The notes beneath the pieces were generated by a model. That model had not been told where the DNA came from. It worked only from the letters and a program-made list of their open reading frames with translations, and did no database searches. The translations under genes were made by a program, and so were the position numbers. 42,345 bases of DNA from a virus (Duplodnaviria > Caudoviricetes): positions 1 to 42,345 of the IMG/VR virus record IMGVR_UViG_3300014613_000011. One strand, given 5' to 3'. Below, piece by piece: positions 24,585-42,345 of the stretch. The first letter of the stretch is position 1, and every line of letters begins with the position of its first letter.

Positions 24585-24617
24585 AGACACCCGATCAGTC
24601 TCCGCAGACTTGGGTCA

Positions 24618-25415: not shown

Positions 25416-25516
25416 GGTGATTCCTCCTGTGTTGGTTGGTTTGGAGCTTATGCCCCCTTACGATCTGATCCCGGCATATGCCAAGACTAAAAAAATGGCC
25501 ACTATGACCCAAAACA

Positions 25517-27052: not shown

Positions 27053-27067
27053 CCGGTCCTAATCCTC

Positions 27068-27991: not shown

Positions 27992-28464
27992 GGTTTGTAC
28001 ACCAGGGCCTTTCCTACTTGAACGTTGGAATCCAGGTGAATCCATCCACCCTCTTGGTCCTCCATTCTCAATCCCTCCATTTGTAACATGGGAACGATCT
28101 GTGCACGAACCCTGGCACATCCGGTGGGTCCCAGGTGTCCCAAGGCATGAAGATCTGCAGCTTCCCCAGGAATGTGGGATGAGGACTCAGCACCGCCAAC
28201 AAAGCTGTTGTAATCCTTGCCGTGGCAGATGGACCCCATGCAATCGACCCAGGTAGGCCTGATCCAACAATGGATGATGAACGGAGCCTTCACCCTCATC
28301 CGGATGTTGTCCATCTTACCTGCCAGAGCCACAATGTTGATCTTCTCAATCGTGCTGGGTCGGTGGTACACCCTCCAGGAGGGGAGCCACAACGCCTCGT
28401 GCACCCTGAAAAAGCGGCTGATCTTTGCCTCCGGATCACTCCAATCGATCTCTGTCCACTCCAT
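27988..28464 (-). CDS. Peptidase M15-family endolysin
   Basis: SRFF, WIRP...YN..VGGAESSSH..GEAAD and WIHLD zinc-peptidase motifs. Confidence 0.85.
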   Translation of the reverse strand: MEWTEIDWSDPEAKISRFFRVHEALWLPSWRVYHRPSTIEKINIVALAGKMDNIRMRVKAPFIIHCWIRPTWVDCMGSICHGKDYNSFVGGAESSSHIPGEAADLHALGHLGPTGCARVRAQIVPMLQMEGLRMEDQEGGWIHLDSNVQVGKALVYKP

Positions 28465-28494
28465 GTCCCCTCCCTCTCATTGTGTTATAGACAA

Positions 28495-28524
28495 AGAATA
28501 TCAGCCCTGGTCGATGCGTGTCAA
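28495..28524 (-). promoter_or_regulatory. Sigma-70-type promoter for the endolysin/replication operon
   Basis: TTGACA-N18-TATTCT with an extended -10 TG. Confidence 0.6.
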
Positions 28525-28530
28525 TAGGAT

Positions 28531-28559
28531 TTGTGTGAGAAACAACGGGGTGGTATAGT
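28531..28559 (+). promoter_or_regulatory. Sigma-70-type promoter for the purZ island (divergent)
   Basis: TTGTGT-N17-TATAGT with an extended -10 TG. Confidence 0.55.
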
Positions 28560-28677
28560 GGGGGTGGATCAAGGGAAAAAGGAAGGAGGATGGGATGCTG
28601 AGTCTGATTATCTTTTTCGGTTCGGTTTTTCTGGCAACACATCTGGCCCAGAAAATGTGGGTGAGGAAAAACCAGCA

Positions 28678-28748
28678 GCGCACGAACGCACAACGCACAA
28701 CGCACGGCGTTCAGCTTGTCACGAATGGTGGGCCTACCAAGAAAGGAA
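28678..28748 (-). repeat. Conserved element, copy B (inverted relative to copy A)
   Basis: - strand TTCCTTTCTTGGTAG-N11-GTGACAAGCTGAACG-N3-TGCGTTGTGCGTTGTGCGTTCGTGCGC. Confidence 0.85.
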
Positions 28749-28757
28749 GAGACACGG

Positions 28758-29015
28758 ATGAGGACGAACGACCAGCTCCGGGTTAGGCTCCACGAGATCG
28801 ACCAAGCGCTGGATTGCCAACTCCCCCGCAACGAAAGGAGGAATCTGAATCGGGAGGGTGAACGGATCAGGGTGAGGTTGGATGGGCGGGATCCCCTGTG
28901 GTCCATAGGGCAGGGGATAACGCACCCTGGCCCTTTAAAAAAGGAATGGGCGACGAAGAAAGCAGCGGTTAACATACTTACTTTACTGGAGGACACATGC
29001 AAAAGGGTAAAATGA
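28758..29015 (+). CDS. Hypothetical protein upstream of purZ
   Basis: ATG at 28758 after AAAGGA. Overlaps the purZ start. Confidence 0.55.
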   Translation: MRTNDQLRVRLHEIDQALDCQLPRNERRNLNREGERIRVRLDGRDPLWSIGQGITHPGPLKKEWATKKAAVNILTLLEDTCKRVK

Positions 29016-30130
29016 ATATAGTTCTTGGAGGCCAGGCCGGTTCGGAGGCCAAGGGGAAACTGTCAGCTTTCCTCTGTGACAACTACCCGGTGGACATGAT
29101 CGTGATGACAGCCAGCCCCAACGCAGGTCACACTGTGATCATGCCCAACGGGGATAAGAAGGTGAGTTACCACCTCCCCATCGGATCGGTCATGTGTGAC
29201 TGCCCCATCGTGCTGACGGCGGCAAGTCTGCTTAACCTGGAGACGTTTGCTGCGGAGATCGTGGCGCTGGGGATCGACCCTCGACGAATCATAGTTGATC
29301 CCAGGGCCGCCATTATCGTCCCCGGTGACATCGCCAGAGAGCATGCCGCTGGGCTGTCCGACATCGGATCCACGCTCCAAGGGATTGGGGAGACGCGGAT
29401 GGGTAAGATGACGCGGGTGGAGGGGTTCGTGACCTTTGCTGCTGTGGCTCGCCACTTCTGTGAGGAGACAGGGGTGCAACTGTCCATGATCCCCACCAGC
29501 AAGATTATCAACTACGCCCTGGACCGGGGAACCACCGTCCTGTGTGAGATGACCCAAGGTTTTGATCTCGACCTGGAGCACGGGATTCACCCCCGCTACT
29601 GCACCAGTAAAATGATCAATCCGTCCATGGCCATGGCCGAGGCTGGGGTGTCTCCCCGCCGAGTCGGTGAGATCTATGCTGTGATCCGGCCCTTCCCGAT
29701 CCGGGTTAACAATCGAACCGGCACCAGTGGTCCCTATGCCGAGGCTCAGGAGATCACCTGGGAGAAGGTAGCGGAGTCATGTGGGCACCCGTCCTCTCTC
29801 CCCTTTGAGCCGGGGGGAACGGTCCATGAGCCGTTGGCCGAAATCACCACCACGACCAAGCTCCCCCGCCGCGTCTTTGAGTTCTCCTGGGAACGTTTCC
29901 ACCACATGATCCAAGTGTGCGCTCCCACCTCCATCTGTCTCCAGTTTGCCAACTATGTGGACTGGGAGGTGTACGAGGCCAAGGGCAACTGGGACAATCT
30001 CACCTATCTGGTCCAGGAATTCATTCTCACCCTGAAACATGAGAGTGGGGTTCCGGTGGAATTCGTTGGGACGGGGCCGGGACACGATCACATGATCCAT
30101 CTTCACCGAGGACTGAGAAGGGAGGGGTAA
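28997..30130 (+). CDS. purZ: PurZ-type N6-succino-2-amino-dAMP synthetase (PurA paralog)
   Basis: GQAGSEAKGK has Ser where PurA has the catalytic Asp (GDEGKGK). Also SPNAGHT, GST..G, QGF.L...HG..YCTS, PIRVNNR, TTTTKLPRRVFEFS, LQFANY (not KLD) and GTGP. Confidence 0.85.
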   Translation: MQKGKMNIVLGGQAGSEAKGKLSAFLCDNYPVDMIVMTASPNAGHTVIMPNGDKKVSYHLPIGSVMCDCPIVLTAASLLNLETFAAEIVALGIDPRRIIVDPRAAIIVPGDIAREHAAGLSDIGSTLQGIGETRMGKMTRVEGFVTFAAVARHFCEETGVQLSMIPTSKIINYALDRGTTVLCEMTQGFDLDLEHGIHPRYCTSKMINPSMAMAEAGVSPRRVGEIYAVIRPFPIRVNNRTGTSGPYAEAQEITWEKVAESCGHPSSLPFEPGGTVHEPLAEITTTTKLPRRVFEFSWERFHHMIQVCAPTSICLQFANYVDWEVYEAKGNWDNLTYLVQEFILTLKHESGVPVEFVGTGPGHDHMIHLHRGLRREG

Positions 30131-30132
30131 CC

Positions 30133-30765
30133 ATGGCTAAGCCTGGAATCACAACACATAAGCAGGATGGTCCGGTGCGGGGATGCTGGTGCTTTTACTG
30201 TGAGGAGCTGAGGGTGCTGGCTGATGATCGTGACCCCAAACCGGGGGAGATGGTGCTTCACCCCATTCCCCACAAACCGTGTGAGGATGAAGTGGACAGG
30301 GAGACGATCAACCACACCATGGTTGAGCACGGACAGGTTATGGACGGTGCTGAGGACTCCCGCACCGATCCCCGCTTTGACGACATGATCGGATTCATCC
30401 CCTTCGCCTACCACCTGCTTCCCACGGACGGGTTGGCTAAGGTTGCCGCCATCATGCGCAAAGGTGAGATCAGTGGCAGACCCAGTGACGGTTGGAGAGT
30501 GGTTCCGGTGGAGGAGCAGATCAACCATGCCATCTCCCACCTCACCGCTTACCTTGCAGGTCGGGGAAGTGACCACTTGGCACATGCCGGATGCAGAGTC
30601 CTCATGGCCTTGGACTTGGAGCGTGACCCCGTGATGGGAGCCGGAGAGCGTGACACCCTATACCGGAAGGCTCTGGGGCAACTGTTACGGGCTGCTGGGC
30701 GGGAGGAGGGGCCTGACTGGGCAGAGCAGGTGGGAGGACCGATGGTGGATCTGACCACCGAGTAA
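30133..30765 (+). CDS. dATP/dGTP diphosphohydrolase N-terminal-like domain protein (dGTP_diPhyd_N / DUF5664-like)
   Basis: YHLLPTDGLAKVA.IM..G...GWR...INHAISHL.AY...DHLAHAGCR.LM pattern. Directly after purZ. Confidence 0.72.
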   Translation: MAKPGITTHKQDGPVRGCWCFYCEELRVLADDRDPKPGEMVLHPIPHKPCEDEVDRETINHTMVEHGQVMDGAEDSRTDPRFDDMIGFIPFAYHLLPTDGLAKVAAIMRKGEISGRPSDGWRVVPVEEQINHAISHLTAYLAGRGSDHLAHAGCRVLMALDLERDPVMGAGERDTLYRKALGQLLRAAGREEGPDWAEQVGGPMVDLTTE

Positions 30766-30795
30766 TGTCCCGTAGTGTCTCCGTAGTTGAAGACG

Positions 30796-30835
30796 AAGAA
30801 GGCCGGCACCCCAACGGGCGTCGGCCTTCTTGTTT
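30796..30835. terminator. Probable bidirectional terminator between convergent units
   Basis: AAGAAGGCCGGC ... GTCGGCCTTCTT inverted repeat followed by GTTT. Confidence 0.65.
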
Positions 30836-30855
30836 AGTGAGAGTGGAAGGGAGAG

Positions 30856-31104
30856 CTACGGGATGAGTCGCTTCATCTCGTCCCAGCACTGGGCCAGCTT
30901 CTCCGCTAACAGGTCCCCGTAAAAGGTCTGGAGTTCCCAGTCACATAGAAACTGAATGATGCGCTCCTTCCGGTCCTGCCGCTTTACCTCTATTTCCGCG
31001 TCGGCTTTGTTGACGAAGATCTTGGTCCCCACCCGAAAGGCTGTAATAGGGGTGATGGTCATATTAGGTGCCATGGGTCCTCCTGGGAGCTGGGCTATGG
31101 TCAC
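30856..31104 (-). CDS. Hypothetical protein
   Basis: Last ORF of the - strand unit. The start may be the internal ATG after AGGAGG. Confidence 0.5.
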   Translation of the reverse strand: MTIAQLPGGPMAPNMTITPITAFRVGTKIFVNKADAEIEVKRQDRKERIIQFLCDWELQTFYGDLLAEKLAQCWDEMKRLIP

Positions 31105-31460
31105 TTGGACCGTTTAAATTCGATGTAGTCGGTGGCGTAAGTGCTGGTGGCCTCCTGGATGGCCGACTCGATGAGGGTGATGTCTACCCCCTTGGTGAGC
31201 AGGGCGATCTTGAGCTTCTCCGCACTGATCTTGGAGCCGGAGGCGGTCTTGACCACCACCTTTCCCACACCGGGGACGTCAAAACCCTTGGCCCTGTTGG
31301 TGATGAGGATGGGGTGGATAAGCTCGTCACCCCTGGACTTGAGCGCCTTGGCGTCGTCCTCCATGGACTTGGCGCGAGACCGTAGGTTGATCCCCTCCGT
31401 TATGAGTTCCTGGTCGTCCGGACTTAGATCCGGGTTGACCCATTCCACTTTCTTAGCCAT
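31101..31460 (-). CDS. Hypothetical protein (coiled-coil N-terminus, MAKKVEW...)
   Basis: AGGAGGAG RBS before the ATG at 31460. Confidence 0.65.
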   Translation of the reverse strand: MAKKVEWVNPDLSPDDQELITEGINLRSRAKSMEDDAKALKSRGDELIHPILITNRAKGFDVPGVGKVVVKTASGSKISAEKLKIALLTKGVDITLIESAIQEATSTYATDYIEFKRSK

Positions 31461-31800
31461 GGGATAACTCCTCCTGTAGTTTGGCGATTCGGGCTTTGAT
31501 GCGCCGGTCTGCACTCTTGGCCCTGAGATCGGAGTCGTGTACGGTCCGGTAACGTTTAGCGGCTGCACTTCTCCGTTTGGTGATAATGACCGGATCACGC
31601 CCCCATTCGTCATAACGATCTACTGATTCCATGAGAGGGCCTATGGCCTGTCTCCATGCAGCTCGTGACTCCTGGGGGTCGATCCCTGACCGCTCACAGG
31701 CTCCGCATACCAGCATCCGGTTGATCTCGTAATCCAGGAACTGAAAAGCGGTCAGGTGTTCATCGACGATGCCAGCCATGGTGCGCTTGGCTATGTCCAC
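31453..31800 (-). CDS. Hypothetical protein (3' part of track ORF 31453..32184)
   Basis: Fills the gap between neighbours. Start at GTG 31800 or ATG 31779, uncertain. Confidence 0.45.
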   Translation of the reverse strand: MDIAKRTMAGIVDEHLTAFQFLDYEINRMLVCGACERSGIDPQESRAAWRQAIGPLMESVDRYDEWGRDPVIITKRRSAAAKRYRTVHDSDLRAKSADRRIKARIAKLQEELSHG

Positions 31801-31853
31801 GTTCCGCTGACAGCCACTGACAGTGACCGTGGCTGACAGCGGGACGCACTGGA

Positions 31854-32702
31854 TTAGTCGGAGGTCAGGTTGGTCAGGCTGGCCGCAACCTTCTTGGGCT
31901 TCGCCTTGGCCTTCGCCTTGGGCTTGGGGTTGTTCCCTCCGATCTCCATGTCCGGATGGTTCTCCTCTATCAGAGCCGCAATGTCCGTGCTGGACGTCAG
32001 GGTGTTGACCGGTCCCGGAATCGAAGGATCGGCCTTCCCGGAGTTTTTTGAGGTGGCCTTGGCCGGGGTCTTGGGTTTGGGTTCGGGCTTGTCCTTCGCC
32101 TTGGCTGCTCTGACGGCTTTGGCCTCCACAGCTTTCTCCAGCTTGGCTTGGGCCAGCATGGTGAGTTCTCGTCCCTTGACCCAATCGGACAGGTCCTTGG
32201 CTCCCTCAACCCCATTCTGCAGGTCGAAGATAACACCGGTGGCCTGTTTCAGGTCGAACAGGGTAAGACCGTGCTGGGTGTGGGACATCTTGGCCGAGGA
32301 GCGGAGCGCCATGCGGTACAGGAGTTCAAGGGCGAAGCCGAGATCGTTACCCGTGCCCTCGTTGATCTCCACCTCCACGACTCCCTCGCTGGCTCCCCAG
32401 TCGAGTTCGGGGAGAATGGAGCAGCCCATCTTGGTGAAGCAGACGTGGCAACGGTTGAAGAAACGGCCAAACGCCTGGGCGTCGGACACCTCGATCTGGA
32501 TGAGTCCGATGGTGGCACCGTTGAGCTTGAGCGCCTTGATCACCTCCTCCGTCGCGGCCTGGATGTGGATGTTGGCCTGGGTCTTCTTGTCAAAGTCCAG
32601 GGCGAGACGGGTTTTGGTCTTGAGATGGGTGGCCTTAAACACGGTGTCGGCCTTGAGCGGGTTGGTTCCCTGGGACATCTCGATAGTCATGGTTCCTTTC
32701 AT
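31854..32702 (-). CDS. Hypothetical protein with a K/A/P-rich C-terminus
   Basis: CAGGAGGAACCACCATG start, directly after a consensus sigma-70 promoter. Confidence 0.75.
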   Translation of the reverse strand: MKGTMTIEMSQGTNPLKADTVFKATHLKTKTRLALDFDKKTQANIHIQAATEEVIKALKLNGATIGLIQIEVSDAQAFGRFFNRCHVCFTKMGCSILPELDWGASEGVVEVEINEGTGNDLGFALELLYRMALRSSAKMSHTQHGLTLFDLKQATGVIFDLQNGVEGAKDLSDWVKGRELTMLAQAKLEKAVEAKAVRAAKAKDKPEPKPKTPAKATSKNSGKADPSIPGPVNTLTSSTDIAALIEENHPDMEIGGNNPKPKAKAKAKPKKVAASLTNLTSD

Positions 32703-32789
32703 GGTGGTTCCTCCTGTGTGGTGGGCGTTCGGCCCTTTGAGTGATGTGGTGCGTCTAATCCCTATCCTATTTTCAGTATACCAATTTTC

Positions 32790-32818
32790 AGTATACCAAC
32801 TCCCAGATTAGGTGTCAA
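32790..32818 (-). promoter_or_regulatory. Near-consensus sigma-70 promoter
   Basis: TTGACA-N17-TATACT with an extended -10 TG. The -10 lies inside a 15-bp tandem duplication (32769-32798). Confidence 0.85.
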
Positions 32819-33032
32819 TCCCCAATCTTTGTTTGATGGACAAGAACTCCAAATCGTTTGGACCGTAGGGGCGCGAATCCCCCATACTGGATCGTGAACC
32901 GCGTGACGCGGTGACGGTGGGGGTGGACCGTAACCCCTGACACACTGAGCACCATTCGGGGATCATGCCGTGCTTGCAGCGTGTGAACCTGGGCTGACGT
33001 TCGGGTGCGGATGCGGATAGCTGACTACTCAT
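32808..33032 (-). CDS. Small hypothetical protein (CKH...CSVC)
   Basis: AAGGAG RBS. Confidence 0.55.
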   Translation of the reverse strand: MSSQLSASAPERQPRFTRCKHGMIPEWCSVCQGLRSTPTVTASRGSRSSMGDSRPYGPNDLEFLSIKQRLGIDT

Positions 33033-33061
33033 GGCTTAACTCCTTATAGTTGTGGTGGCGG

Positions 33062-33292
33062 TTATACCTTTCCTACCAGTTGAAACACGGTTTCCTCGAT
33101 GGCCCTCAGTGTCTGGGCGCATGCCTTTTTGGTGAGGCCGGTGGCGATGGTCCGACCGCTTACCGTTTCAATGGTCCAGTAGTCGCACTGGCGAAAAGCG
33201 TGGATCCTAAACGCCTTACCTGCTTCGCGACATTGGGTGTTGATGCGCTTGACTTCCATAGCCAATTGTGCGTCTGTGGTCCTGGTTCCCAT
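33062..33292 (-). CDS. Small early hypothetical protein
   Basis: CAGGAGGAACCACCATG start. Confidence 0.65.
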   Translation of the reverse strand: MGTRTTDAQLAMEVKRINTQCREAGKAFRIHAFRQCDYWTIETVSGRTIATGLTKKACAQTLRAIEETVFQLVGKV

Positions 33293-33313
33293 GGTGGTTC
33301 CTCCTGATTGTGG

Positions 33314-33436
33314 TTAACTTCGTTCGATACAGTACCCCAGCTTAAGGTACAGGTCCTCAAGACCCCGGACCCCGTAATCAACTAAGGTTCGGTAAATACG
33401 CCCGTCTCGGATCTGGATTCGGTACAGTCTGATCAC
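33314..33436 (-). CDS. Small hypothetical protein (40 aa, MIRLYRIQIRDG...)
   Basis: GGAGGAG RBS before the GTG at 33436. Confidence 0.45.
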   Translation of the reverse strand: MIRLYRIQIRDGRIYRTLVDYGVRGLEDLYLKLGYCIERS

Positions 33437-33516
33437 GGTGACTCCTCCATGTTGGGGTGATTGGGGTGGGAGCCGGTGTCGACCCCCACCTGTTAACTTG
33501 CAAAATCCGCGCCAGA

Positions 33517-33885
33517 TTAGACGACCCCGTTGGTCCCCTTGCGAGGCGGTATCACCCACTGATACCCGCAGCCGCAGGAGCCGAGGCAAGATCCGTCCTC
33601 AAACATCTCAGTGGCTCCACTGGACAGGTTCTCATGGCAGCGGGGACAGTTGGTCCGCCTGTCATCCTGGGAGCGGACCACCATCCAGGCGTTGTCCTGG
33701 GTGACGTATCCATGGTCATACAGTCCGTATTTGACCGGGATCTGGAACCGGTCCGGACTTCGCTTCCACAGCTTGACTTGTCCGTTGACTCTCCAACGCT
33801 GGGGGGTTCCGTCCGCATTGTAGTCGTGGAGTGAGTGGATGATGTCTCCCGGCTTCAGGGTTTTGGCCTGTTCGATGGTGATCAT
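33517..33885 (-). CDS. Hypothetical phage protein with C-terminal Cys motifs
   Basis: NADGTPQRWRVNG..K.WKR...F.IPVKYGLY pattern. AAGGGG RBS. Confidence 0.65.
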   Translation of the reverse strand: MITIEQAKTLKPGDIIHSLHDYNADGTPQRWRVNGQVKLWKRSPDRFQIPVKYGLYDHGYVTQDNAWMVVRSQDDRRTNCPRCHENLSSGATEMFEDGSCLGSCGCGYQWVIPPRKGTNGVV

Positions 33886-33912
33886 GGTTTCCCCTTTCAT
33901 TCGTGGTGGTGA

Positions 33913-34161
33913 TTACCACCAAATATTGTGATAGCCGGTGACGTTGATTAACTTCCGGCAATGCTCGCCGGGATGTCCCTTCTCCCGGTTGCAGTATGTT
34001 CCCGGCGTTGACGAGATGTGCGGTGGTGCCTCTTTGCCGCACAACTGGCAGTCGTGGTCGTATATGCGACCCTGAATGTTGCACTTTACATCTGGCGATC
34101 CACAAACCGGACACCTTGTGAAATAGCCCTGTACGGTTCCGTCTGGTAGTTCTTCACCCAT
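33913..34161 (-). CDS. Small Cys/His-rich (zinc-binding) protein
   Basis: CPVCG, CQLCG and YC..EKGH.GEH. AAGGAGG RBS. Confidence 0.6.
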   Translation of the reverse strand: MGEELPDGTVQGYFTRCPVCGSPDVKCNIQGRIYDHDCQLCGKEAPPHISSTPGTYCNREKGHPGEHCRKLINVTGYHNIWW

Positions 34162-34255
34162 AATACCCTCCTTGGTTGGTGGTGGTTACACGGTCCTGTT
34201 GGTCCGCTCACTGAGGGGCAAGACCTCCTCCAAGGTCCTGCCCCCTGTCAACGGA

Positions 34256-35242
34256 TCAAGCAGCCCGAAGCACCCGCTCCATGGACGTCTCGATTTTGCC
34301 CATCATCCGCTCCCGCAGGATGTCACTGGACACCTCATGGGTGGCGAACTGGGTCAGCAGGTTGTACGCTCTCCACAAGTTGAGGTACTTCTTCTGCTTC
34401 TGGGCGTCGAGGAAGTCCACCACCTGGAGACGGGGAGCGCCTTCCACTCCGGACACCTCCCGCATCTCCTTGAATCGGTCAAGCTGGCCCTGGGACAGGC
34501 TGACACCGTTTAGAAGCTGCTCGACCATGGCGGGAGTGGTCTTGGTTTCTGCCCATACCTTCCACAGCTCGATCTGCTCGGAGAATCGGCTCATGCCGTC
34601 CACGATCAGCCCCCGGAGTTGGTCGATGTCGATCCCCTGGTGGTGTTCCTTGCGCTGGGCAGCGAAGATCTTACCCACGGTCATGCCGTTTGAGCAGACC
34701 AGCCGGTAAGCTCCAAAGGTGGTACGGAGTGCCCAGCCGGTGTCGTAGCTGTTGAAGGTGACGATGCTGGGGTTGATGAGGTCGGGCTTGCCACCGGGGG
34801 TGTGAGGACCGATGTCGTAGGTGACATCCGGGAACTTGACCTCCAGCCGCATCCGGGCACCCTCGCGGGGCAGAGAGACGAAGGGTTCGGGGGTTCCGAA
34901 CTCCGGAAGAGTGAGTGCTGCAGCCATGACCGTGGCTATCACGTCCTGATGGCTGATGAGGTGATAAGCCTCGGTGACGCAGGGGGCAAAGACGCGTCCG
35001 GTGTCAGGATCAAAGATGGTCTTGTGGCCGTCACCCATGGGGACCATGTGTCCTTCGTGGTTGCGGTAGTGGGCAAGTCCTTCGTTGACGGACGGGTAGT
35101 CCACGACGTCCGGGTGTCCGTACAGGGTGAGCGCTTTGACCGTTTCTTCCTGAGGTGCGGGTTGCTCCACGGGTGCGGGTTGACTGGTGGAAGCGGGTTT
35201 GGTGGCCTTCTTGCGCGAGTTGATCTTGGTTACTTTAGCCAT
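34256..35242 (-). CDS. DUF932/DUF945-like phage/plasmid protein
   Basis: Y.LISHQDV and NSYD.G.A....FGAYRLVCSNGM, plus NLWRAYN.LT motifs. CAGGAGG RBS. Confidence 0.8.
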   Translation of the reverse strand: MAKVTKINSRKKATKPASTSQPAPVEQPAPQEETVKALTLYGHPDVVDYPSVNEGLAHYRNHEGHMVPMGDGHKTIFDPDTGRVFAPCVTEAYHLISHQDVIATVMAAALTLPEFGTPEPFVSLPREGARMRLEVKFPDVTYDIGPHTPGGKPDLINPSIVTFNSYDTGWALRTTFGAYRLVCSNGMTVGKIFAAQRKEHHQGIDIDQLRGLIVDGMSRFSEQIELWKVWAETKTTPAMVEQLLNGVSLSQGQLDRFKEMREVSGVEGAPRLQVVDFLDAQKQKKYLNLWRAYNLLTQFATHEVSSDILRERMMGKIETSMERVLRAA

Positions 35243-35282
35243 GGGTTGATCCTCCTGTGGTGGTGCGGGTTTGGGTGAGTGG

Positions 35283-35313
35283 TCACCCTTAAGACTTGCA
35301 AAGGTCGTGCCAA
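35283..35313 (-). promoter_or_regulatory. Sigma-54 (-24/-12) promoter P3
   Basis: TTGGCACGACCTTTGCA, then AGGGTGA. Upstream of the DUF932 gene. Confidence 0.85.
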
Positions 35314-35367
35314 GCCGTGATGATCAGCTCTGCCCCCCAACGCTGGGCTGAGGGGCAGTCCTGATGA

Positions 35368-35616
35368 TCACGATTCCTGATATCTCATTTGGAGGTCCAG
35401 TGTGGCCATGTCCAGGTCGGCATCGGTCAAGGGATCCTGTCCCGTGATCCGGTCGATCTGCTGCAAGGCGCGAAGGCGAAGGGGGCGACTCAGGCTCTCC
35501 TCCATCACCACATCGATCAGGTCTCCCCACACCTTTAGCTCCTGAACTGTGGCGCATCCGTCCGGGGTCCTCTGCTCTGCTGCTCTGACGATCCGTGTTG
35601 CCCGTGTGTTGTTCAT
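35368..35616 (-). CDS. Early hypothetical protein (MNNTRATRIV...)
   Basis: AAGGAGGAG RBS, directly after promoter P2. Confidence 0.65.
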   Translation of the reverse strand: MNNTRATRIVRAAEQRTPDGCATVQELKVWGDLIDVVMEESLSRPLRLRALQQIDRITGQDPLTDADLDMATLDLQMRYQES

Positions 35617-35656
35617 GTCGTGTCTCCTCCTTGGTTGGTGTGTGTGTGCTGAGGTG

Positions 35657-35686
35657 TCACCCTGGGAACTGCAAGCCTCGTGCCAG
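35657..35686 (-). promoter_or_regulatory. Sigma-54 (-24/-12) promoter P2
   Basis: CTGGCACGAGGCTTGCAGTTCCCAGGGTGA. Confidence 0.85.
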
Positions 35687-35710
35687 GGTGACTCCTTTCT
35701 GTGGGTCTGG

Positions 35711-35953
35711 TTAGAAGGTGGCGATGTCCTGGATGGCTCCATCTTTCCAAGAAAGCTGAAAGGGGATCGGCTCCGGCTCCCCATCCTCGGTGCACATGCC
35801 CCCGATCAGCAGCGTGTCCGGATCTCCGTCTTCTGGTCCCCACATCTCTTCGTCGGTGCCGATGTCGGTGATGCTGGTGATGGTGATGGGGCAGTCGTCC
35901 GCTGCGAGTAGGGCGTTGATGGTGGCGATGCTGGGTGTGGCTGGTCTGGTCAT
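35711..35953 (-). CDS. Early acidic hypothetical protein (MTRPATPSI...)
   Basis: AAGGAG RBS before the ATG at 35953. Confidence 0.6.
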   Translation of the reverse strand: MTRPATPSIATINALLAADDCPITITSITDIGTDEEMWGPEDGDPDTLLIGGMCTEDGEPEPIPFQLSWKDGAIQDIATF

Positions 35954-36002
35954 GGCTCGTGTCTCCTTGGTTGGTTGGTTGACTGTTGGTTGCCGTCCAG
36001 GC

Positions 36003-36284
36003 TCAGTCCTCCGGGATGGTAGCGAAGCGTCCCAGCGCGCCACTCCAAAACAGGAGGGCGGTGACGCGGGGGGCTGGGTTGGTCTTCTGGGCGCGGAGCC
36101 GCGCCAAGCAGCGGCGGCACGTCACCTTTGCGGGATCCGTGGTGGTGGCCTGTCGCCCGTTGCTGATCCGTCCGCAAAGCGGATGGTCCCAGGCTTGCGG
36201 CACGTGCGGGTGTCGAGTCGCGAAGTGCGTGCGGGTGCGTGCCTCTCTGTTGGCCTCTGCTGCTCTCGTGCGGGGTCTGGTCAT
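36003..36284 (-). CDS. Early hypothetical protein with a H..LCG..VTCRRC zinc-finger-like motif
   Basis: GAGGAG RBS before the ATG at 36284. Confidence 0.6.
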   Translation of the reverse strand: MTRPRTRAAEANREARTRTHFATRHPHVPQAWDHPLCGRISNGRQATTTDPAKVTCRRCLARLRAQKTNPAPRVTALLFWSGALGRFATIPED

Positions 36285-36354
36285 CGTGCGTCTCCTCGTG
36301 CGGGGTTGCGGGTTGTGTGGGGGCCGGTGCTCTGACCGGCCCCCGCTGTGGTGG

Positions 36355-36609
36355 TCACCGATCGGTGGCCCTGCGGTGTCGCATGGCCTCGCCCTCGCAG
36401 CTCTGCCGGATCCGCGTGATCTCGGGGTCTGCGTGGTCTGGGTGCGCCATGTGGCCCAGCAGCACCACGGCCATGCCCCAGGCCAGTGCTGCTCGTGCGT
36501 GGTCCTGGCTCCTGCCGGTGTGGTCTGCGATCCTGCCCAGCTCCCCTGCTGTCTGGGTGGGGGCATCTGTGGTGGCGATCTGTGCCATGCTGCGGTGGTG
36601 CTGTGCCAT
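36355..36609 (-). CDS. First early hypothetical protein (MAQHHRSM...)
   Basis: GAGGAGGAG RBS, directly after promoter P1. Confidence 0.55.
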   Translation of the reverse strand: MAQHHRSMAQIATTDAPTQTAGELGRIADHTGRSQDHARAALAWGMAVVLLGHMAHPDHADPEITRIRQSCEGEAMRHRRATDR

Positions 36610-36658
36610 GGTGGCTCCTCCTCGTGCGGGTGATGGGTGGCGGGGGTGGATTGCCCCC

Positions 36659-36688
36659 TCACCCTGGGAATTGCAACCCTCGTGCCAG
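36659..36688 (-). promoter_or_regulatory. Sigma-54 (-24/-12) promoter P1
   Basis: CTGGCACGAGGGTTGCAATTCCCAGGGTGA. 28 of 30 bases match P2. Confidence 0.85.
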
Positions 36689-36770
36689 CCGGACACAGCC
36701 CGACACCCCCACGGGTGGTGGTTACTGACCGTCAGTCACCCCCCACGGGTGGGTTGCACCTCAGACGCAA

Positions 36771-36894
36771 CGGAACTCCCAGTTCCGATTGACGGAACTC
36801 CCGGTTCCGACGGCCAATCCCCGCGAGGCCGCGTCGGTCGGGCACTCGCGACGATCGGAACCCCCAGTTCTGTTAGCCAGAACTCCGAGTTCCG
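36771..36894. promoter_or_regulatory. Four palindromic CRGAAC-N5-GTTCYG sites (putative enhancer or operator array)
   Basis: Copies at 36771-36787, 36793-36809, 36856-36872 and 36878-36894. Two pairs, each with 22-bp spacing. Confidence 0.75.
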
Positions 36895-37186
36895 ATTAGC
36901 GGTAATTAACGCCCGTGCAACGTGCGCAACGGTCCAGGCGGGAGCGTCACGACCCCAGCAGAGCAGCGGACCCCCACACCCCCAGCGGACCGGTGCGGAC
37001 CGCCGGTTCGGGCTGTCAGCACCCGGAGCCACGGACCGGACCGGGGGCGGGGGTTACCAATGGTGGGTGACGTCAGAGCGGGGGGCAGCCAGGGCAGCCG
37101 GGATTCCCGACCTCTCACGCGGGTGCAGACAGCAACCCCCCGGTGTCGTCAACCCCCCAGCCACGCAGCCGTGGACGCTGGGGTAC

Positions 37187-37221
37187 TGAGCGCTGCACCG
37201 TGACGTTGAGCGCTGCACCGT
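37187..37221. repeat. 15-bp direct repeat TGAGCGCTGCACCGT x2
   Basis: Copies at 37187-37201 and 37207-37221 in the non-coding control region. Confidence 0.8.
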
Positions 37222-37713
37222 CGTGCACTGGACTGACGGCCATTCAGCCAGCGGGGGGCGGTTCAGCAGCCGAGCAGGGGTCGACGGGTGATGGGTGCTC
37301 AGCAGGTGAACGGGCCAGCAGCCGCTGATGACCGTTCAGCCTGGGTCCCCCGCCTGGGAGGGGGGAAGGGGATGTGCGAGAAGGTGATATCCCTGGGGAG
37401 TATGGGATGTGGGGTCCTCTCGACTAACACGACTATTCCCCCAAAATTATGTGGGTCCCCCTGCCTACCCATATACCTATCCACCATATACATGGGGGAT
37501 TCGCCCAGGAGCACAGTTTGTCTCTCCACCCAAATGCGTACTCCCTTCAGAGTTATTGTCTCCCACACAAACACTTCACAACACCCATTAACCCCCGTTA
37601 ACATTGGACTGTGCCGGTGGGGAGGGGGAACAAGGACGCCTCCACCTTAGTCCTGGTGCCGGTCCCACCAGTGACGACCCCCTCCCCCCAACCCAAACCT
37701 AAGGAGACGAGAT

Positions 37714-37908
37714 GTGGATATGTCAGCAGTCACAAGTTCTATCAGTGCAGGAATCATGTGTCTGATTTGGTGGGATATCCGCACCATCCGCACGGAATTT
37801 AAAGGGCTGGAAACCAAATGCTCAGAGAAAAGAAGTGTGATCAATGACAGGCAGCACAACCTGGACACCAGGGTAGCTGTGTTAGAGGATAGAGGAGCCA
37901 AAAAATGA
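37714..37908 (+). CDS. Small membrane/coiled-coil protein, holin-like
   Basis: One hydrophobic segment, then a coiled coil ending RVAVLE. AAGGAG RBS. Confidence 0.5.
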   Translation: MDMSAVTSSISAGIMCLIWWDIRTIRTEFKGLETKCSEKRSVINDRQHNLDTRVAVLEDRGAKK

Positions 37909-38309
37909 AATGGACCCCAGCATTTAAAGAAGCATTTCTGGGTATGATAGAGGAAATCCCCAACATCACCGCTGTATGTCGGGTAATGGGAACTTCCACC
38001 ACCACCTGTCGCAGCCACCGGGAAAGTGATCCGGAGTTTGCTGCCCGACTGGCTCAGGCCCTGGAAGACGGGATAGACGGGTTGGAGGAGGTGGCGCGTA
38101 AACGTGCCGTGGACGGATGGGAGGAGCCGGTGTTTTATCGGGGAGAAGTGGTGGGGGAAATCACCAAGTACTCCGACCACCTACTCACCGTGCTGCTAAA
38201 AGGGAATCGGCCCAAAAAGTTCAACCCCAGACCGGGGATGGACATAAGCACCGATGGGCCTGTAGTGATGAACTTTAACCTTGGAGGAGATGGGGGAGAT
38301 GGTAACTAA
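37905..38309 (+). CDS. terS: Terminase small subunit
   Basis: AFL.....NIT..C HTH, DPEFA, LEEVARKRAVDG.EEPVFY.G..VG...KYSD.LL..LLKG.RP pattern. Confidence 0.85.
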   Translation: MKWTPAFKEAFLGMIEEIPNITAVCRVMGTSTTTCRSHRESDPEFAARLAQALEDGIDGLEEVARKRAVDGWEEPVFYRGEVVGEITKYSDHLLTVLLKGNRPKKFNPRPGMDISTDGPVVMNFNLGGDGGDGN

Positions 38310-38943
38310 GACGCCCAACCCCAAAAAACGTGAACCGGCCCCCAAACACGTGCCAGCCCCCAAGCTGATCATCGTCACCGGGATGCCCCGGTCCGGAACC
38401 AGTCTTATGATGCGGATCCTGCGCAACTCACGAGTCCGGGTCCTCACCGACGACAACCCCTCCTTTGAGATGGAAAAGACTGACCATCTCATGGAGGACA
38501 ATAAGTGGGTGACCCACCTCGACCCCAAAATCCCCACAGCGTTTAAAGTGTTGTGGCCCCAGTTTGTGCATCTCCCCTGGGAGACGCCCATGACCGCCAT
38601 CTGGATGGGCCGCAATCCCCGCGAACAGGCCAAGTCCCAACGCAAATTCGGCCACCTCATGGGTCAAAACATACCCCGGAGCTTTCTATCCCCCCGCACC
38701 AAACTGCTCACCAAGGTGGATGCCAGCGCCACCAGCTTTATACAGCGCCAGGAGTGGGTGAGGTTCATCCGCGTCTCCTTTGAGGATCTGGTGACCTCTC
38801 CCCATGTCACCTGCAGGGTTCTGAGCCGCGAGTTGGGGTTCACCCTCGACCCCTCTTGTGTGGTCCCCCGTGACCCCTGTAACGGACCCCCCGTGGGTAC
38901 GTTTGAACTCACCTATGACCAGGACGGGAGTCCCCATGGTTGA
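38299..38943 (+). CDS. Sulfotransferase-family (P-loop) protein
   Basis: IIVTGMPRSGTSLMMRIL 5'-PSB loop, RNPREQAKS 3'-PB-like motif and VSFEDLVTSP. Confidence 0.8.
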   Translation: MVTKTPNPKKREPAPKHVPAPKLIIVTGMPRSGTSLMMRILRNSRVRVLTDDNPSFEMEKTDHLMEDNKWVTHLDPKIPTAFKVLWPQFVHLPWETPMTAIWMGRNPREQAKSQRKFGHLMGQNIPRSFLSPRTKLLTKVDASATSFIQRQEWVRFIRVSFEDLVTSPHVTCRVLSRELGFTLDPSCVVPRDPCNGPPVGTFELTYDQDGSPHG

Positions 38944-40360
38944 GATTAACTATCTCGCGGAACCCACCCTATCCCTTTTCCACGCGGACCGCTCATTTTA
39001 CCGTGTAGTGAGGGGGCCGGTCCGGTCCGGAAAGTCCACGGGGATGAGCATTGAGGGGATGGCCATCGCCAATCGTCAGGTCCCCCATCCCAACTCCGGG
39101 CTTAGACGCACCCGTGGGGCCATCATCCGCAACACTTATCGTGAGCTTGAGGACACCACTATCAAGACATGGCTTATGTGGTTTCCGGAGAAGATCTTCG
39201 GGCGCATCAATCGCCAGAATATGTCCCAAATGATACGAGTCAACGATCTGGAAATGGAGATCCTGTTTCGCGCCCTGGACCGGCCCGATGACGTCGCCAA
39301 GCTCCTATCCCTGGAGCTTACCTGGGCCTGGGTCAACGAAGCCAGGGAGGTTCCCCGCGCCATCATTGACGTTCTGGGTGACCGCGTTGAGCAATATCCC
39401 CCGGCTTCGGAGGAAGGGTGCACCTGGGGAGGTGTCTTCCTCGATACCAACCCGCCCGATGAGGATCACTGGCTGGCCGAGATGGAGGCCAACCCTCCAG
39501 ACGGATGGCGTTTCTTCGTCCAGCCTGGAGCTTTGTTGGAGCGCGAAGGCGTGTTTTATCCCAATCCTGCCGCCGAGAACATCCGCAACCTAAACGGTGG
39601 GATGGGTTACTATCTCAAACGTCTTCCCGGCAAGAAGAACGGCTACGTGCGTGTCTACTACTGTAATCAGCACGGATACATCGAGGAGGGTAAGAGGGTC
39701 CACCCCGAATACTCCGACGCCATTCACTCCTCTAAGGAGCCGCTGGTTCCTACTCCCGGCCTCCCACTCCACATTGGGATTGACTTTGGCCTCACCCCCG
39801 CTGCCGCCATCTGTCAGAAGCAGATCGACGGACAGTGGCTGGTCCTCAAGGAGTTGGTAACCGAACGTCTTGGCGTCTCCAATTTCGTGGAGCTGGTACT
39901 CCTCCCCGAAATAGTGGCCAATTATCTCAGCTATGATTATCAGATCTGGGGGGATCCTGCCGGGAATCAGGAGAGTCAGAACAATGAGACTAGCATCTTT
40001 GACCTGTTCCGCAACCAGGGTCTGGAACCGGAACCGGCACCCTCCCAGAACCCCACGATCCGACGTGAGGCCTTGTCAGCCCCCCTCTCCCGTATGATCG
40101 ATGGTAAGCCTGGGATGTTGATTGATCCCTCCTGCCGCACTATCCGCAAGGGGTTATCCTCCAAGTTCATCTACAAGCGTCTACGCGTTGTGGGCGATGA
40201 GAAATATCATGAGGTACCTGACAAGAATTTCTGGTCCCATGTGTGTGAGGGTCTGGAATATGCCATGGTGGGAGCTGGGGAAGGTAAGCTGGAACTCGCA
40301 CCGCCTCCACCCCCCACTCCCCCACGTTTCCTTAGCCAAGGTTCCTGGATGGGAGCCTGA
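38936..40360 (+). CDS. terL: Terminase large subunit
   Basis: GPVRSGKS, IIRNTYREL..TT, LLSLELTWAWVNE, DTNPP, GIDFGLTPAA, GDPAG and SHVCEGLEY motifs. ATG at 38936. Confidence 0.92.
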   Translation: MVEINYLAEPTLSLFHADRSFYRVVRGPVRSGKSTGMSIEGMAIANRQVPHPNSGLRRTRGAIIRNTYRELEDTTIKTWLMWFPEKIFGRINRQNMSQMIRVNDLEMEILFRALDRPDDVAKLLSLELTWAWVNEAREVPRAIIDVLGDRVEQYPPASEEGCTWGGVFLDTNPPDEDHWLAEMEANPPDGWRFFVQPGALLEREGVFYPNPAAENIRNLNGGMGYYLKRLPGKKNGYVRVYYCNQHGYIEEGKRVHPEYSDAIHSSKEPLVPTPGLPLHIGIDFGLTPAAAICQKQIDGQWLVLKELVTERLGVSNFVELVLLPEIVANYLSYDYQIWGDPAGNQESQNNETSIFDLFRNQGLEPEPAPSQNPTIRREALSAPLSRMIDGKPGMLIDPSCRTIRKGLSSKFIYKRLRVVGDEKYHEVPDKNFWSHVCEGLEYAMVGAGEGKLELAPPPPPTPPRFLSQGSWMGA

Positions 40361-40370
40361 GGAGGTCCTA

Positions 40371-40565
40371 ATGGGTAGACTGGCCATTATACTAATTGTG
40401 TTGTGGGTTCTGTGCGGGTGTGCCCCCACTCCCCGCCCCATGCTCATACCCCTCGACTGTTTTGAGTATGGGGTGGAGTATACCATCACCCGGTCCCCAT
40501 TTGGGACCACCATACTGAGATCCTATCCGATTGATTACGGATCCCCTCTTGGAGGTGCCATATGA
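40371..40565 (+). CDS. Small lipoprotein (spanin-like?)
   Basis: MGRLAIILIVLWVLCG|C lipobox-like signal. GGAGG RBS. Confidence 0.55.
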   Translation: MGRLAIILIVLWVLCGCAPTPRPMLIPLDCFEYGVEYTITRSPFGTTILRSYPIDYGSPLGGAI

Positions 40566-40738
40566 TACCCACAGATGCCCAGATCTACGCTTTCTTCTCC
40601 GGCCATGGAGTCGCCACCGCTTTCTTTTTCGGTATGGTGTTTGGAGCCTTCCCCGGATACCTCAAGGGGGTGTGGTCCAGATTCCGCAAGCTGAGAGATA
40701 ACGGGAAAGGGGTTTCGAATGTCTCTCCCCAAGCTTAA
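40562..40738 (+). CDS. Small membrane protein (58 aa), holin-like
   Basis: Manual translation MIPTDAQIYAFFSGHGVATAFFFGMVFGAFPGYLKGVWSRFRKLR... GGAGG RBS and ATGA coupling. Confidence 0.5.
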   Translation: MIPTDAQIYAFFSGHGVATAFFFGMVFGAFPGYLKGVWSRFRKLRDNGKGVSNVSPQA

Positions 40739-41150
40739 ATACCGGAGTGGGTACAAATATCAGGTGGCCGAGAGTATCACCATTCAGACTCAGATCACTG
40801 GATTTTTTGCCCACAACCAGTTCCTACTACTCCTTGAAGATGGGACCCTGTTTATCCGAGTTGGGTACCCCTGGGACGGTCCGAGTGGTCCGGCCGTTGA
40901 CACCCCCAATTTCATGCTATCCTCCCTTGTCCATGATGCCTTTTATCAGCTTATGCGAGAGGAACTCCTCCCCCAGTCAATCCGGGAACTTGCGGACAAT
41001 GAAATGTCCCGGATTAACTATGAATGGGGATTGGATAATCCAGGAAAGGGTATGAGTTGGTTCCGACGCTGGTACACCCATCTTGGAGTGCGGATTGGGG
41101 CCTCTTCCGCTGCTGACCCCGCCAATCGACGCAAAATCATAGAGGTGTAA
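40719..41150 (+). CDS. DUF1353-like protein
   Basis: GYPWDGPS.P, SLVHDAFY and R.LAD motifs. Confidence 0.7.
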   Translation: MSLPKLKYRSGYKYQVAESITIQTQITGFFAHNQFLLLLEDGTLFIRVGYPWDGPSGPAVDTPNFMLSSLVHDAFYQLMREELLPQSIRELADNEMSRINYEWGLDNPGKGMSWFRRWYTHLGVRIGASSAADPANRRKIIEV

Positions 41151-41220
41151 CATGGTAGCTCCAGGCTGGTGGTTTCCAATAGTAGACCCAAAATTTCCAA
41201 TGCCAAGAAGGGGAATAATC

Positions 41221-41580
41221 ATGACTATCGACGCAATCAAATATCTGGAGACTCCGTTGGCCGTCATCAACACGGGTACTGTGTCCTCAGCCCTCATCCT
41301 TCAGCCTTGGACTCGCGCCATTGGGGTTTTCATCCCCGATATAGACGCCGGAGCCGTGGGCTTGGAGTGCTCCATGGACGGCGGAACCACCTTCGTCCCG
41401 GTCCAGGATCTGTGGCTTCAGGATGATTGTGTGATCATTGCCTCCGGGAAGGACCCCTGCTACGTGGACTTTTCCCCCTTCATCCAGTCCATCCAGCGGG
41501 GAAACTCCGAGTGTAAGATCCGGTTCACCTGTGCAGCCCAGTCAGCCGTCCGTACCTTAACCGTCGTCGAAGTCGGATAG
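41221..41580 (+). CDS. Hypothetical beta-rich protein before the portal gene
   Basis: ATG at 41221 after AAGGGG. SMDGGTTF Asp-box-like motif. Confidence 0.6.
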   Translation: MTIDAIKYLETPLAVINTGTVSSALILQPWTRAIGVFIPDIDAGAVGLECSMDGGTTFVPVQDLWLQDDCVIIASGKDPCYVDFSPFIQSIQRGNSECKIRFTCAAQSAVRTLTVVEVG

Positions 41581-41588
41581 GAGTTGCT

Positions 41589-42345
41589 GTGGATAGGAAA
41601 ACCGTCGATACCAGAGAAAAGAAGGACACCACCTCTCTCGTCACCGAAGCCCTGTCCCGCTTCCGCGATTGTGACTCCTTTGAGTCTGAAAACCGCAAAG
41701 AGGGCCTCGACGATCTCAATATGTTGGCCGGTAAGAATCATTGGCCAGCTAAGATCGTGGATGAGAGAAACGCTGAGGGTCGACCCACTCTTACCATCAA
41801 TCGACTCCCCTCCTTCGTCGATCAAAACGTGGGTGACGCCCGTCTCAACCAAGTGGCCATCAAAGTATCCCCCTATGGCGGGGGTGCCACCCGCGAGGTT
41901 GCGGACATCCTCAATGGCCTCATCCGCAACATCTGCAACATGTCCAAGGCCGATATTGCCTTTCAGACCGCCCAGGAAAGTGCCGCATCCAACGGATTTG
42001 GCTACTGGAGGATCACCACCGACTATGTTGACGATGGTGTATTTGACCAGGAAATCCGCATCGAGCGTATCAAGAACCCGTTCACCGTCTATTTTGATCC
42101 TTCTCATCAGAAGCATGACGGATCCGATGCCCGTTTTGTCTTCATCACGGAGATGATCAGCCGCGCTGAGTATGGGATTCGCTACCCCTCCAAGACCCTA
42201 TCCGAGTTTCCAGTGTCCAATGAGGATGCTATTCTGTGGCGGGAGGAGCAACAGGTCCGCGTGGCCGAGTACTGGGTCAAACGCCCCAAAAAGCTTCGTC
42301 GATACCTCCTATCTGACGATCGTATTGTGGACGGTGATGACTGGG
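41589..42345 (+). CDS. P22-like portal protein, N-terminal part (continues at base 1; about 682 aa in total)
   Basis: GTG start after AGGAG. Manual translation MDRKTV...HWPAKIVDERNAEGRPTLTINRLPSFVDQ...GFGYWRI is typical of P22-type portals. In frame with ORF 39..1415 via the overlap. Confidence 0.9.
   Translation, partial: MDRKTVDTREKKDTTSLVTEALSRFRDCDSFESENRKEGLDDLNMLAGKNHWPAKIVDERNAEGRPTLTINRLPSFVDQNVGDARLNQVAIKVSPYGGGATREVADILNGLIRNICNMSKADIAFQTAQESAASNGFGYWRITTDYVDDGVFDQEIRIERIKNPFTVYFDPSHQKHDGSDARFVFITEMISRAEYGIRYPSKTLSEFPVSNEDAILWREEQQVRVAEYWVKRPKKLRRYLLSDDRIVDGDDW
42223..42345. repeat. Terminal overlap, copy 2 (circular assembly)
   Basis: AGGATGCTATTC...GATGACTGGG is identical to 1-123. 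Confidence 0.97.

Follow-up and report, generated by a model that had tools for sequence, protein, structure and literature searches.

Which protein opens the first promoters of a phage that has sigma-54-type boxes in front of a set of small genes and encodes no sigma-54 activator? The question is raised by the viral record IMGVR_UViG_3300014613_000011 (Duplodnaviria; Caudoviricetes), one virus record of 42,345 nucleotides whose ends overlap by 123 nt and which is called here, at its full length, the window. It is the complete genome of a P22-like podophage that encodes PolA and has a PurZ-like gene. Ahead of its small leftward genes lie four sigma-54 -24/-12 boxes on the - strand, P1 to P4, and upstream of P1 stands an array of four palindromes. 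This control module is real and conserved, and it resembles an enhancer-dependent sigma-54 promoter. From sequence comparison we consider it likely that a host stress activator binds the four palindromes and fires P1 and with it the first small genes of the phage.

The exact pattern TGGCAC-N5-TTGC was found at 3 sites on the - strand; 300 dinucleotide shuffles gave 0.09 on average and never more than 1. These sites are P1, P2 and P3, and P4 is a variant of them (Table 1). At one mismatch 4 sites were observed, a count that is not significant, 31 of 100 shuffles reaching 4. All four boxes carry the -24 GG and the -12 GC at exact spacing, all are intergenic, and all are followed by an open reading frame (ORF) led by a ribosome-binding site (RBS), 43-52 nt after the predicted +1. 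AGGGTG follows the boxes of P1, P2 and P3, at P3 one base later than at the other two, and a 55-nt stretch at P2 is 75% identical to the P1 region, which is likely the trace of a duplication. An earlier note, made from the letters of the window alone, had described three intergenic - strand sigma-54 sites with exact spacing, each with an AGGGTGA-type start followed by an RBS and a gene. This description held for all three, and the number of promoters has to be raised, the fourth box at 33500-33514 having been overlooked. The same note expected the three sites to come out on top of a sigma-54 scan. By consensus score over the window, P1-P3 do rank first and P4 next, whereas on a sigma-54 matrix built from 16 host promoters P3, P1, P2 and P4 take ranks 1, 3, 5 and 6 of 9, mixed with intragenic matches. 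No sigma-70-like site was found on the - strand from 38500 to 32819, so the ten small genes behind the boxes have no other predicted promoter. The sigma-70 promoter that closes the block serves genes from 32702 down, and a similar one precedes the homologous gene in a related phage, G306; a second sigma-70 promoter, with 10/12 of the consensus, lies at 28524.

The exact palindrome CRGAAC-N5-GTTCYG occurs at 4 sites, where 300 shuffles averaged 0.007 and did not exceed 1. The four are spaced 22/63/22 bp and so form two 22-bp pairs upstream of P1, just as the earlier note had reported, and they lie within 0.2 turn of one helical face. Among the four promoters, only P1 has such sites in the range of about 80-250 bp upstream. 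A LexA-type site is GAAC-N4-GTTC, and a LexA-type reading of the palindrome was ruled out by its N5 spacing.

Table 1. Predicted control elements and genes of the leftward block (window positions; palindrome centres counted from the predicted P1 start; bits on the host matrix).
Feature	Position	Strand	Remarks
P1 sigma-54 -24/-12 box	36673..36687	-	predicted +1 ~36661 within AGGGTG; sole promoter with enhancer-like array
P2 sigma-54 box	35671..35685	-	exact consensus
P3 sigma-54 box, before DUF932 gene	35298..35312	-	exact consensus
P4 sigma-54 box, TGGCGC-N5-TTGC variant	33500..33514	-	followed by ACAGGTG and RBS-led ORF
Three small ORFs behind P1 (84, 93, 80 aa)	35711..36609	-	no significant family match
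82-aa ORF behind P2	35368..35616	-	no significant family match
DUF932 gene (328 aa) and two small ORFs (82, 127 aa) behind P3	33517..35242	-	
Three small ORFs behind P4 (40, 76, 74 aa)	32808..33436	-	
Putative enhancer palindrome 1	36771..36787		centre -118; 21.7 bits
Putative enhancer palindrome 2	36793..36809		centre -140; 20.4 bits
Putative enhancer palindrome 3	36856..36872		centre -203; 18.7 bits
Putative enhancer palindrome 4	36878..36894		centre -225; 19.7 bits
Two identical 13-nt GC-rich boxes	36706-36718, 36740-36752		between array and P1, where hosts have an IHF (integration host factor) box
Extended sigma-70 promoter	32790..32818	-	11/12 consensus; ends sigma-54 block
Strong RNA hairpin directly before P3	35310..35375	-	z -6.1
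RNA hairpin	34200-34262		z -5.5
RNA hairpins	36290-36360, 33440-33500		z ~ -2.4

The earlier note had seen no bacterial enhancer-binding protein (bEBP) among the phage ORFs, and a six-frame search bore this out: the activator domain PF00158 was found in 0/1 genome for the phage and in 0/5 other records, and HTH_8 (a helix-turn-helix, HTH) in 0/5 for the phage and its relatives. The host sample was drawn from the phylum of G001, a genome with a locus (L110) under the title Desulfatitalea, which belongs to Desulfobacterota. A palindrome placed 52-56 nt before a sigma-54 box gave 22 matches in 17 of the 301 genomes of this phylum, with 5 in the control. In the class of G176, a stricter form of the pattern gave 22 matches, spread over 16 of 201 genomes, and 0 in the control, and in the phylum of G004, a myxobacterium, the pattern was found in 0 of 121 genomes. 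The palindrome, whose comparison with bEBP regulon motifs had been proposed, therefore matches an enhancer that stands before Desulfobacterota sigma-54 promoters.

Once six weak single-site matches were dropped from the 22 of the phylum of G001, the 16 host promoters mentioned above remained. Their proximal site lies at -86 to -90 and is usually joined, near -190/-220, by two distal sites some 30 bp from each other, and 11 of the 16 have an IHF-like box that departs from the consensus at no more than 1 position. On the palindrome matrix derived from hosts, the four best matches of the window are the four palindromes, at 18.7-21.7 bits, followed by one at 15.7 and then 10.1; host sites score 13.0-22.2 bits on the same matrix. 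One site in G176 is identical to phage palindrome 2 over 17 bases.

The genes next to these sites point to a candidate activator. Matches to bEBPs numbered 25 in G176 and 18 in G083, the best reciprocal-looking pair being L546/L567 at 70% identity, and adjacent sites were found at 2 of the 37 parsed bEBP genes of the two genomes, which were just the family members L546 and L567. Sites lay at most 500 nt behind 11 of 18 genes of the activator family and behind 0 of 4 weaker homologues; activator gene and site shared a contig in 19 of 24 genomes and were within 2.5 kb of each other in 14 of 24. Across the phylum, the activator (E <1e-15) was present in 12/12 pattern-positive genomes vs 5/28 others. 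A de novo dyad search in 17 regions downstream of activator genes, one duplicate having been dropped, returned GGAA-N7-TTCC 16 times, compared with 0.0 expected, and the consensus of these regions was TCGGAACT-N3-AGTTCCGA. In 5 unselected genomes GGAA-N7-TTCC was still the top dyad, and the triple layout was seen in 3 of them.

PF00158 was detected in 5/5 candidate activators and a weak HTH_8 in 3/5, and the AAA+ motifs are intact in 120 homologues (GAFTGA in 82, GSFTGA in 38, Walker A in 120). The receiver domain of the same 120 proteins is degenerate: the phospho-Asp is kept in 119, the first acidic-pocket position is Ser in 107, and Tyr takes the place of the conserved Lys in 118. No kinase gene was evident beside the activator in six larger loci read by eye. 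Because the receiver is degenerate, the activator is probably controlled by a ligand or a partner and not by a kinase. The earlier claim that the activator is signal-responsive is weakened to this extent, a receiver that lacks the acidic pocket and the Lys speaking against the classical phosphorylated type. Named homologues are labelled Desulfatiglandales, Deltaproteobacteria, Pseudomonadota and Abyssobacteria, and hence the family is not confined to one phylum.

Target genes were judged over 43 distinct host matches, some of them without a clear gene. Chaperone targets comprised groES-groEL at 4 loci, Hsp20 at 4 and a 96-aa Hsp70 N-terminal fragment, and clusters of a KamA-family gene with a D-Ala-D-Ala-ligase-like (ATP-grasp) gene were found 5 times. 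Further targets were CBS, peptidoglycan-binding and diadenylate-cyclase genes, together with many small proteins that had weak OB-fold matches only. Five genomes with 2-3 groES copies each had the enhancer at 4 of 11 groES copies, from which we infer an inducible stress set rather than a housekeeping one. At the 9 chaperone promoters checked, CIRCE, sigma-32 and CtsR patterns were absent, and a weak sigma-70 match was seen at 2 of them. The pseudo-receiver activator (L573:1501-2916, - strand; also G176:C69, G088:C34 and G450:C1) is clustered with targets in an apparent stress island, which holds an extra groESL, Hsp20, KamA, ATP-grasp and GNAT genes and small OB-fold-like proteins. In the mostly open-access literature searched, no sigma-54 chaperone regulator of deltaproteobacteria like this one was found. 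Excerpts of PMC12316311 describe groES, hsp20 and dnaK behind sigma-54 promoters in Bacteroidota and Planctomycetota, a likeness to the host set that extends neither to the phylum nor to the palindrome and the activator.

Relatives of the phage were found via DUF932, terminase and pattern scans, and four independent ones cover the control region. The terminases of G306, G307 and G308 are 59-64% identical to that of the window, of whose 27 proteins they match 18, 18 and 9, respectively, and the terminase of L166 is 61% identical. Terminase loci at 54% identity have the terminase alone in common, one of these homologues being labelled Desulfatibacillaceae, and other close loci end before the region. 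The conservation in related phages, a check proposed by the earlier note, is complete for the promoter and partial for the array: a sigma-54-type box occupies the same place and orientation in 4/4 relatives, that of L166 being a TGGTAT variant which escaped the strict scan, and the palindromes are present in just 2/4, G306 having four in two pairs and G307 three. In addition, the unrelated 70-kb phage G309, in which 2 of the 27 window proteins are matched at ~30%, carries a group of small genes headed by a sigma-54 box; three palindromes stand 134-176 bp upstream of this box, and a sigma-70-like promoter follows close behind it. The arrays of G306, G307 and G309 score 17.6-22.8 bits on the host matrix.

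Of the 24 viral stretches from a refined scan for palindrome pairs, just 3 had an outward box, and G306 and G307 account for two of these, so the palindrome enhancer is rare among viral contigs. The scan for a single palindrome with a box led to 120 viral stretches being read, nearly all of which were one-site chance matches, and the extended promoter motif including AGGGTG was found in 5 viral stretches, 2 of them relatives. A loose pair pattern across genomes returned mostly unrelated repeats, with a sigma-54 box within 400 nt at 5 of 158 loci. In many Prevotella records (L043-L154), palindromes of the TGGAACA-N3-TGTTCCA type form 22-bp tandem arrays that have no nearby sigma-54 boxes.

NtrC/glnAp2 and PspF/pspA are classical enhancer-dependent sigma-54 promoters. 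At such promoters, according to the part of PMC7175178 available, the closed complex of the sigma-54 holoenzyme is opened by a looped AAA+ activator, and the likeness to the phage extends to the -24/-12 box, the tandem palindromic sites at 100-230 bp and a GAFTGA-type AAA+ activator. The phage differs in having no IHF box, in its four sites in two 22-bp pairs and possibly in one array for four promoters, and its activator would be encoded by another genome. As for phages, YuA of Pseudomonas depends on sigma-70 and sigma-54, and one sigma-54-like start has been mapped in it (Putzeys et al. 2024, PMC10914365). The excerpts of that paper name no enhancer array or activator ('enhancer' occurs 0 times in its main text), whereas the window has four boxes heading its first genes and a matched host enhancer. 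No phage using a host enhancer-binding protein by such a circuit was found in the mostly open-access literature.

If the array acts as the host enhancer that it resembles, the host sigma-54 holoenzyme would form a closed complex at P1 after DNA entry, and host activator dimers bound to the four in-phase sites would assemble an AAA+ ring, loop to the polymerase and open P1 with ATP. P2-P4, 1.1-3.3 kb from the array, would rely either on this array acting over that distance or on activator from solution. The sigma-70 promoter would then take over downstream, so that later early genes and replication genes need not wait for the activator. Binding to the palindromes, transcription from these sites, the identity of the host and the service of P2-P4 by the array or by soluble activator are all what we infer from the module. 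Because the boxes are conserved, the array matches a Desulfobacterota enhancer and an activator gene is missing from the phage, its host is probably a sigma-54-rich deltaproteobacterium. The earlier suggestion of a sigma-54-rich host agrees with the presence of the motif before Desulfobacterota sigma-54 promoters, and it is from this motif that the host is predicted.

A number of observations weigh against a host activator working through the array. The array is not a geometric member of the host regulon: its nearest site is at -118 and not at -86 to -90, its pairs are 22 bp apart where those of hosts are ~30 bp apart, and 22-bp pairs are not enriched in hosts (with up to 2 mismatches allowed, 21 of 301 genomes have them, and the control gave 29). 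An IHF site between enhancer and sigma-54 promoter is common, though not obligatory; between array and P1 the best match to one has 4 mismatches, in a spacer of 32% AT. The absolute helical phase from array to promoter varies among the relatives, and no host-type palindrome was found within 300 nt upstream of P2, P3 or P4. In two relatives the palindromes are replaced, by TGAGACA repeats within the same flanking scaffold in G308 and by CGAAAC-N3-GTT-type repeats in L166. On the host side, 12 of the 17 training regions came from genomes first chosen by the pattern. The activator is found in 13 of 15 pattern-positive genomes of the class of G176 and also in 26 of 31 others there, and because it is near-universal in that class, the co-occurrence of 12/12 vs 5/28 across the phylum is partly taxonomy. 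The motif corresponds to the prediction for DVU0619, a regulator with another HTH, and the HTH of the activator family resembles that of DVU0621, with which it shares the half-site and not the spacing. Finally, a DNA search of window positions 22400-42345 against 201 genomes gave no spacer and no prophage link; its 1 match was a 119-nt DUF932 homologue in a phage-like stretch, L617.

The earlier note had further proposed that a host bEBP gates early transcription. The match of the array to a host enhancer supports this proposal, and the restriction of the enhancer to P1, together with the strong downstream sigma-70 promoter serving genes from 32702 down, counts against it. The weakened part is that the phage waits for a host state, as opposed to an activator that is triggered by infection or titrated, and we favour neither. 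Probably the phage starts fastest in stressed cells or rides a stress response triggered by infection, the two being about equally likely to us.

The TGAGACA repeat seen in G308 is also enriched in hosts, in 30 of 151 genomes of the class of G176, compared with 3 control matches. Its direct repeats (L798-L822) are 10-13 bp apart and occur once per genome, mostly intergenic before varied genes. TGAGACA was considered as a second sigma-54 enhancer and found unsupported, a sigma-54 box being near just 2 of 25 loci and no such motif being in the Desulfovibrio supplement. That relatives swap enhancers is accordingly no more than a hypothesis.

Among other explanations, the one that survives best, though we think it unlikely, is that the array and the extra boxes are decoys which titrate the stress activator and the sigma-54 holoenzyme, the phage itself using mainly sigma-70. 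Decoys would fit the position of the phage sites at the top of the host score range yet outside the host geometry, and a strong sigma-70 promoter is indeed present. G306 and G307 carry 3 and 2 head-to-head sigma-54 box pairs, respectively, upstream of the array (G306:C1:42908-43075; G307:C1:9997-10092), which on steric reasoning could not both be productively occupied. Such pairs are estimated to occur in ~510 viral stretches of IMG/VR vs ~0.3 by uniform chance, and 113 of the 124 stretches read (loci L663-L786) lie outside ORFs >150 aa. These double boxes often come as triplets with a period of ~47 bp, and the pairs are possible holoenzyme decoys or reservoirs; none was found in the window. 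What speaks against decoys there is that every box faces an RBS-led gene at 43-52 nt with a conserved start region, that ten small genes would be left without a predicted promoter, and that the array lies at enhancer distance on one helical face.

Less probable again is that the same signal is read by a two-component regulator of the DVU0619 type and not by the degenerate-receiver family. Kazakov et al. (2015, PMC4641369) predicted a DVU0619 regulon of nine sites for DVU0617-0616 of Desulfovibrio. In the excerpts available, these sites are like those of the phage (17-bp RRGAAY-N5-RTTCYY; 13.7-18.8 bits on the host matrix), each promoter has three, and the nearest is ~69 nt before the -24 box, as in the host set. 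The pairs there are 29-31 bp apart, the operon is a chromosomal one of two genes of unknown function, and neither chaperone targets nor a phage are listed in those excerpts. That paper assigns the motif by gene co-location in three Desulfovibrio genomes, which would favour a DVU0619-type reader, and the assignment is a prediction for a regulator whose HTH is unlike that of the family co-locating in our host sample. G083 does have a bEBP with a DVU0619-like HTH, L559, but no site flanks its gene and a single 15-bit match lies inside it. None of the 21 parsed bEBPs of G176 has such an HTH, although G176 has at least 5 site clusters, and the sites stand directly behind genes of the degenerate-receiver family. 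The recognition helix of this family, G[IV]TTRQLHKLM in 96 of 120 homologues, is closer to GVTTRQIHKLM of DVU0621, which the excerpts of PMC3333781 present as a nitrite-stress regulator of D. vulgaris, listed as a two-component regulator, and the DVU0621 half-site TC(A/G)GAA is similar to that of the family. The published DVU0621 sites differ in spacing and sequence, and the targets given in the excerpts are nitrite reductase and lactate genes (PMC4641369, PMC3333781).

We rate slightly lower the idea that the palindromes are operators for a phage repressor, or iterons or a packaging signal, whose host likeness is incidental. Two candidate repressor genes, for an 89-aa HTH-like protein (by eye) and a 173-aa ribbon-helix-helix (RHH)-like protein, adjoin each other at 27274-28045 (-) and are kept in G306 and G307, and the region adjoins terS. 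A look-alike triple repeat with a 22-bp period lies in a replication-initiator-like gene of an unrelated viral contig (L640:2440-2580), where it probably forms iterons. None of this would account for a 19-bp match to an independently located host motif, with one 17-mer identical. The sites are also 100-200 bp from the promoter, too distant for simple occlusion, no more strong copies stand at other phage promoters, and G309, which is unrelated and has no match to either gene, shows the same array and box. The least probable explanation, the virion-delivered form of which was the alternative in the earlier note and gained no support, is that a virion-delivered or early phage protein bypasses the host activator, for although P2-P4 each lack an enhancer and have in common a start region specific to the phage, and several large virion proteins have no Pfam match, the six-frame search turned up no AAA+ domain of a sigma-54 activator, the phage would have no need to keep four near-perfect host sites, and enhancers can act from kilobases away, NtrC being described as acting over long range in the excerpts of PMC4641369.

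The remaining features of the region and of the phage are as follows. Boxes related to the 13-nt GC-rich boxes occupy the same places in G306, G307 and G308, and the RHH-like and HTH-like proteins are candidates for binding these boxes before P1 or for shutting off early promoters, the RHH likeness of the 173-aa protein being a lead only. The strong hairpins lie between transcription units, have no U-tails and are possible terminators or processing sites. The genes diverge at a non-coding stretch at ~36690-37700: small genes lead leftward from it, terS and terL rightward, and between the latter two lies a sulfotransferase-domain gene (38299-38943, +) that is kept in G306, G307 and G308. Structural genes encode P22-like portal, coat and head-closure proteins and the terminase subunits; replication-type genes encode a family A DNA polymerase with a uracil-DNA glycosylase domain, a helicase and an ERCC4 nuclease. 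No integrase and no RNA polymerase were found among the 46 ORFs scanned, and we therefore read the phage as lytic and dependent on the host polymerase. At 28997-30765 (+) lies the PurA/PurZ-like gene, with GSEAKGK and with Ser at the position of the PurA catalytic Asp, followed by an adjoining dATP/dGTP diphosphohydrolase gene. Ser for the catalytic Asp is the rule that marks PurZ as opposed to PurA. Both genes are kept in G306, G307 and G308, and the pair suggests a genome with 2-aminoadenine (Z).

No close cultured relative was found, the best terminase match being 43% and the best polymerase matches <34%. The sequencing runs that contain the phage carry the label groundwater metagenome, and the assembly was confirmed in 2 of four groundwater runs, two that may themselves be its source, with depth at contig level only. 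The deepest pieces in two shallow runs (4.3-4.5 vs 2-3.7 elsewhere) fall at 37080-37500, which adjoins the enhancer; a terminal repeat there was considered and not called, the rise in depth being too weak and at most a weak hint. A short-unit repeat of the TGCGT/TGCGTTG type is present in two inverted copies far from each other, at 5549-5649 and 28679-28756, with 78-93% complementarity. A 724-aa gene at 15607-17781, at the end of the structural block, lies in a low-GC stretch (~40% vs 55%) and was probably acquired recently.

A wider picture, tentative and in our judgement rather doubtful as a whole, would be that a lytic phage clade of bacteria of the sulfate-reducer group captured a host stress enhancer as its ignition switch. 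A single array of four sites, its spacing altered so that IHF is not needed, perhaps as 2-aminoadenine DNA resists minor-groove binders, would act in the manner of a eukaryotic enhancer and fire several sigma-54 promoters over distances of up to 3.3 kb. Relatives would swap the array for sites of other host factors, which would make it a determinant of host range or host state, and the activator would be an undescribed pseudo-receiver protein controlling chaperone and stress genes of Desulfobacterota.

The circuit is named and testable in each of its parts, namely an activator family, a DNA motif, a stress regulon and a phage promoter copying the enhancer. The analysis also exposes a likely stress and chaperone regulator of Desulfobacterota, of which no description was found in the literature searched. 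If a host activator does work through the array, the first genes of a lytic phage would be tied to a stress activator of its host and not to the housekeeping polymerase, and the motif would serve as a host predictor for uncultured phages of bacteria of the sulfate-reducer group.

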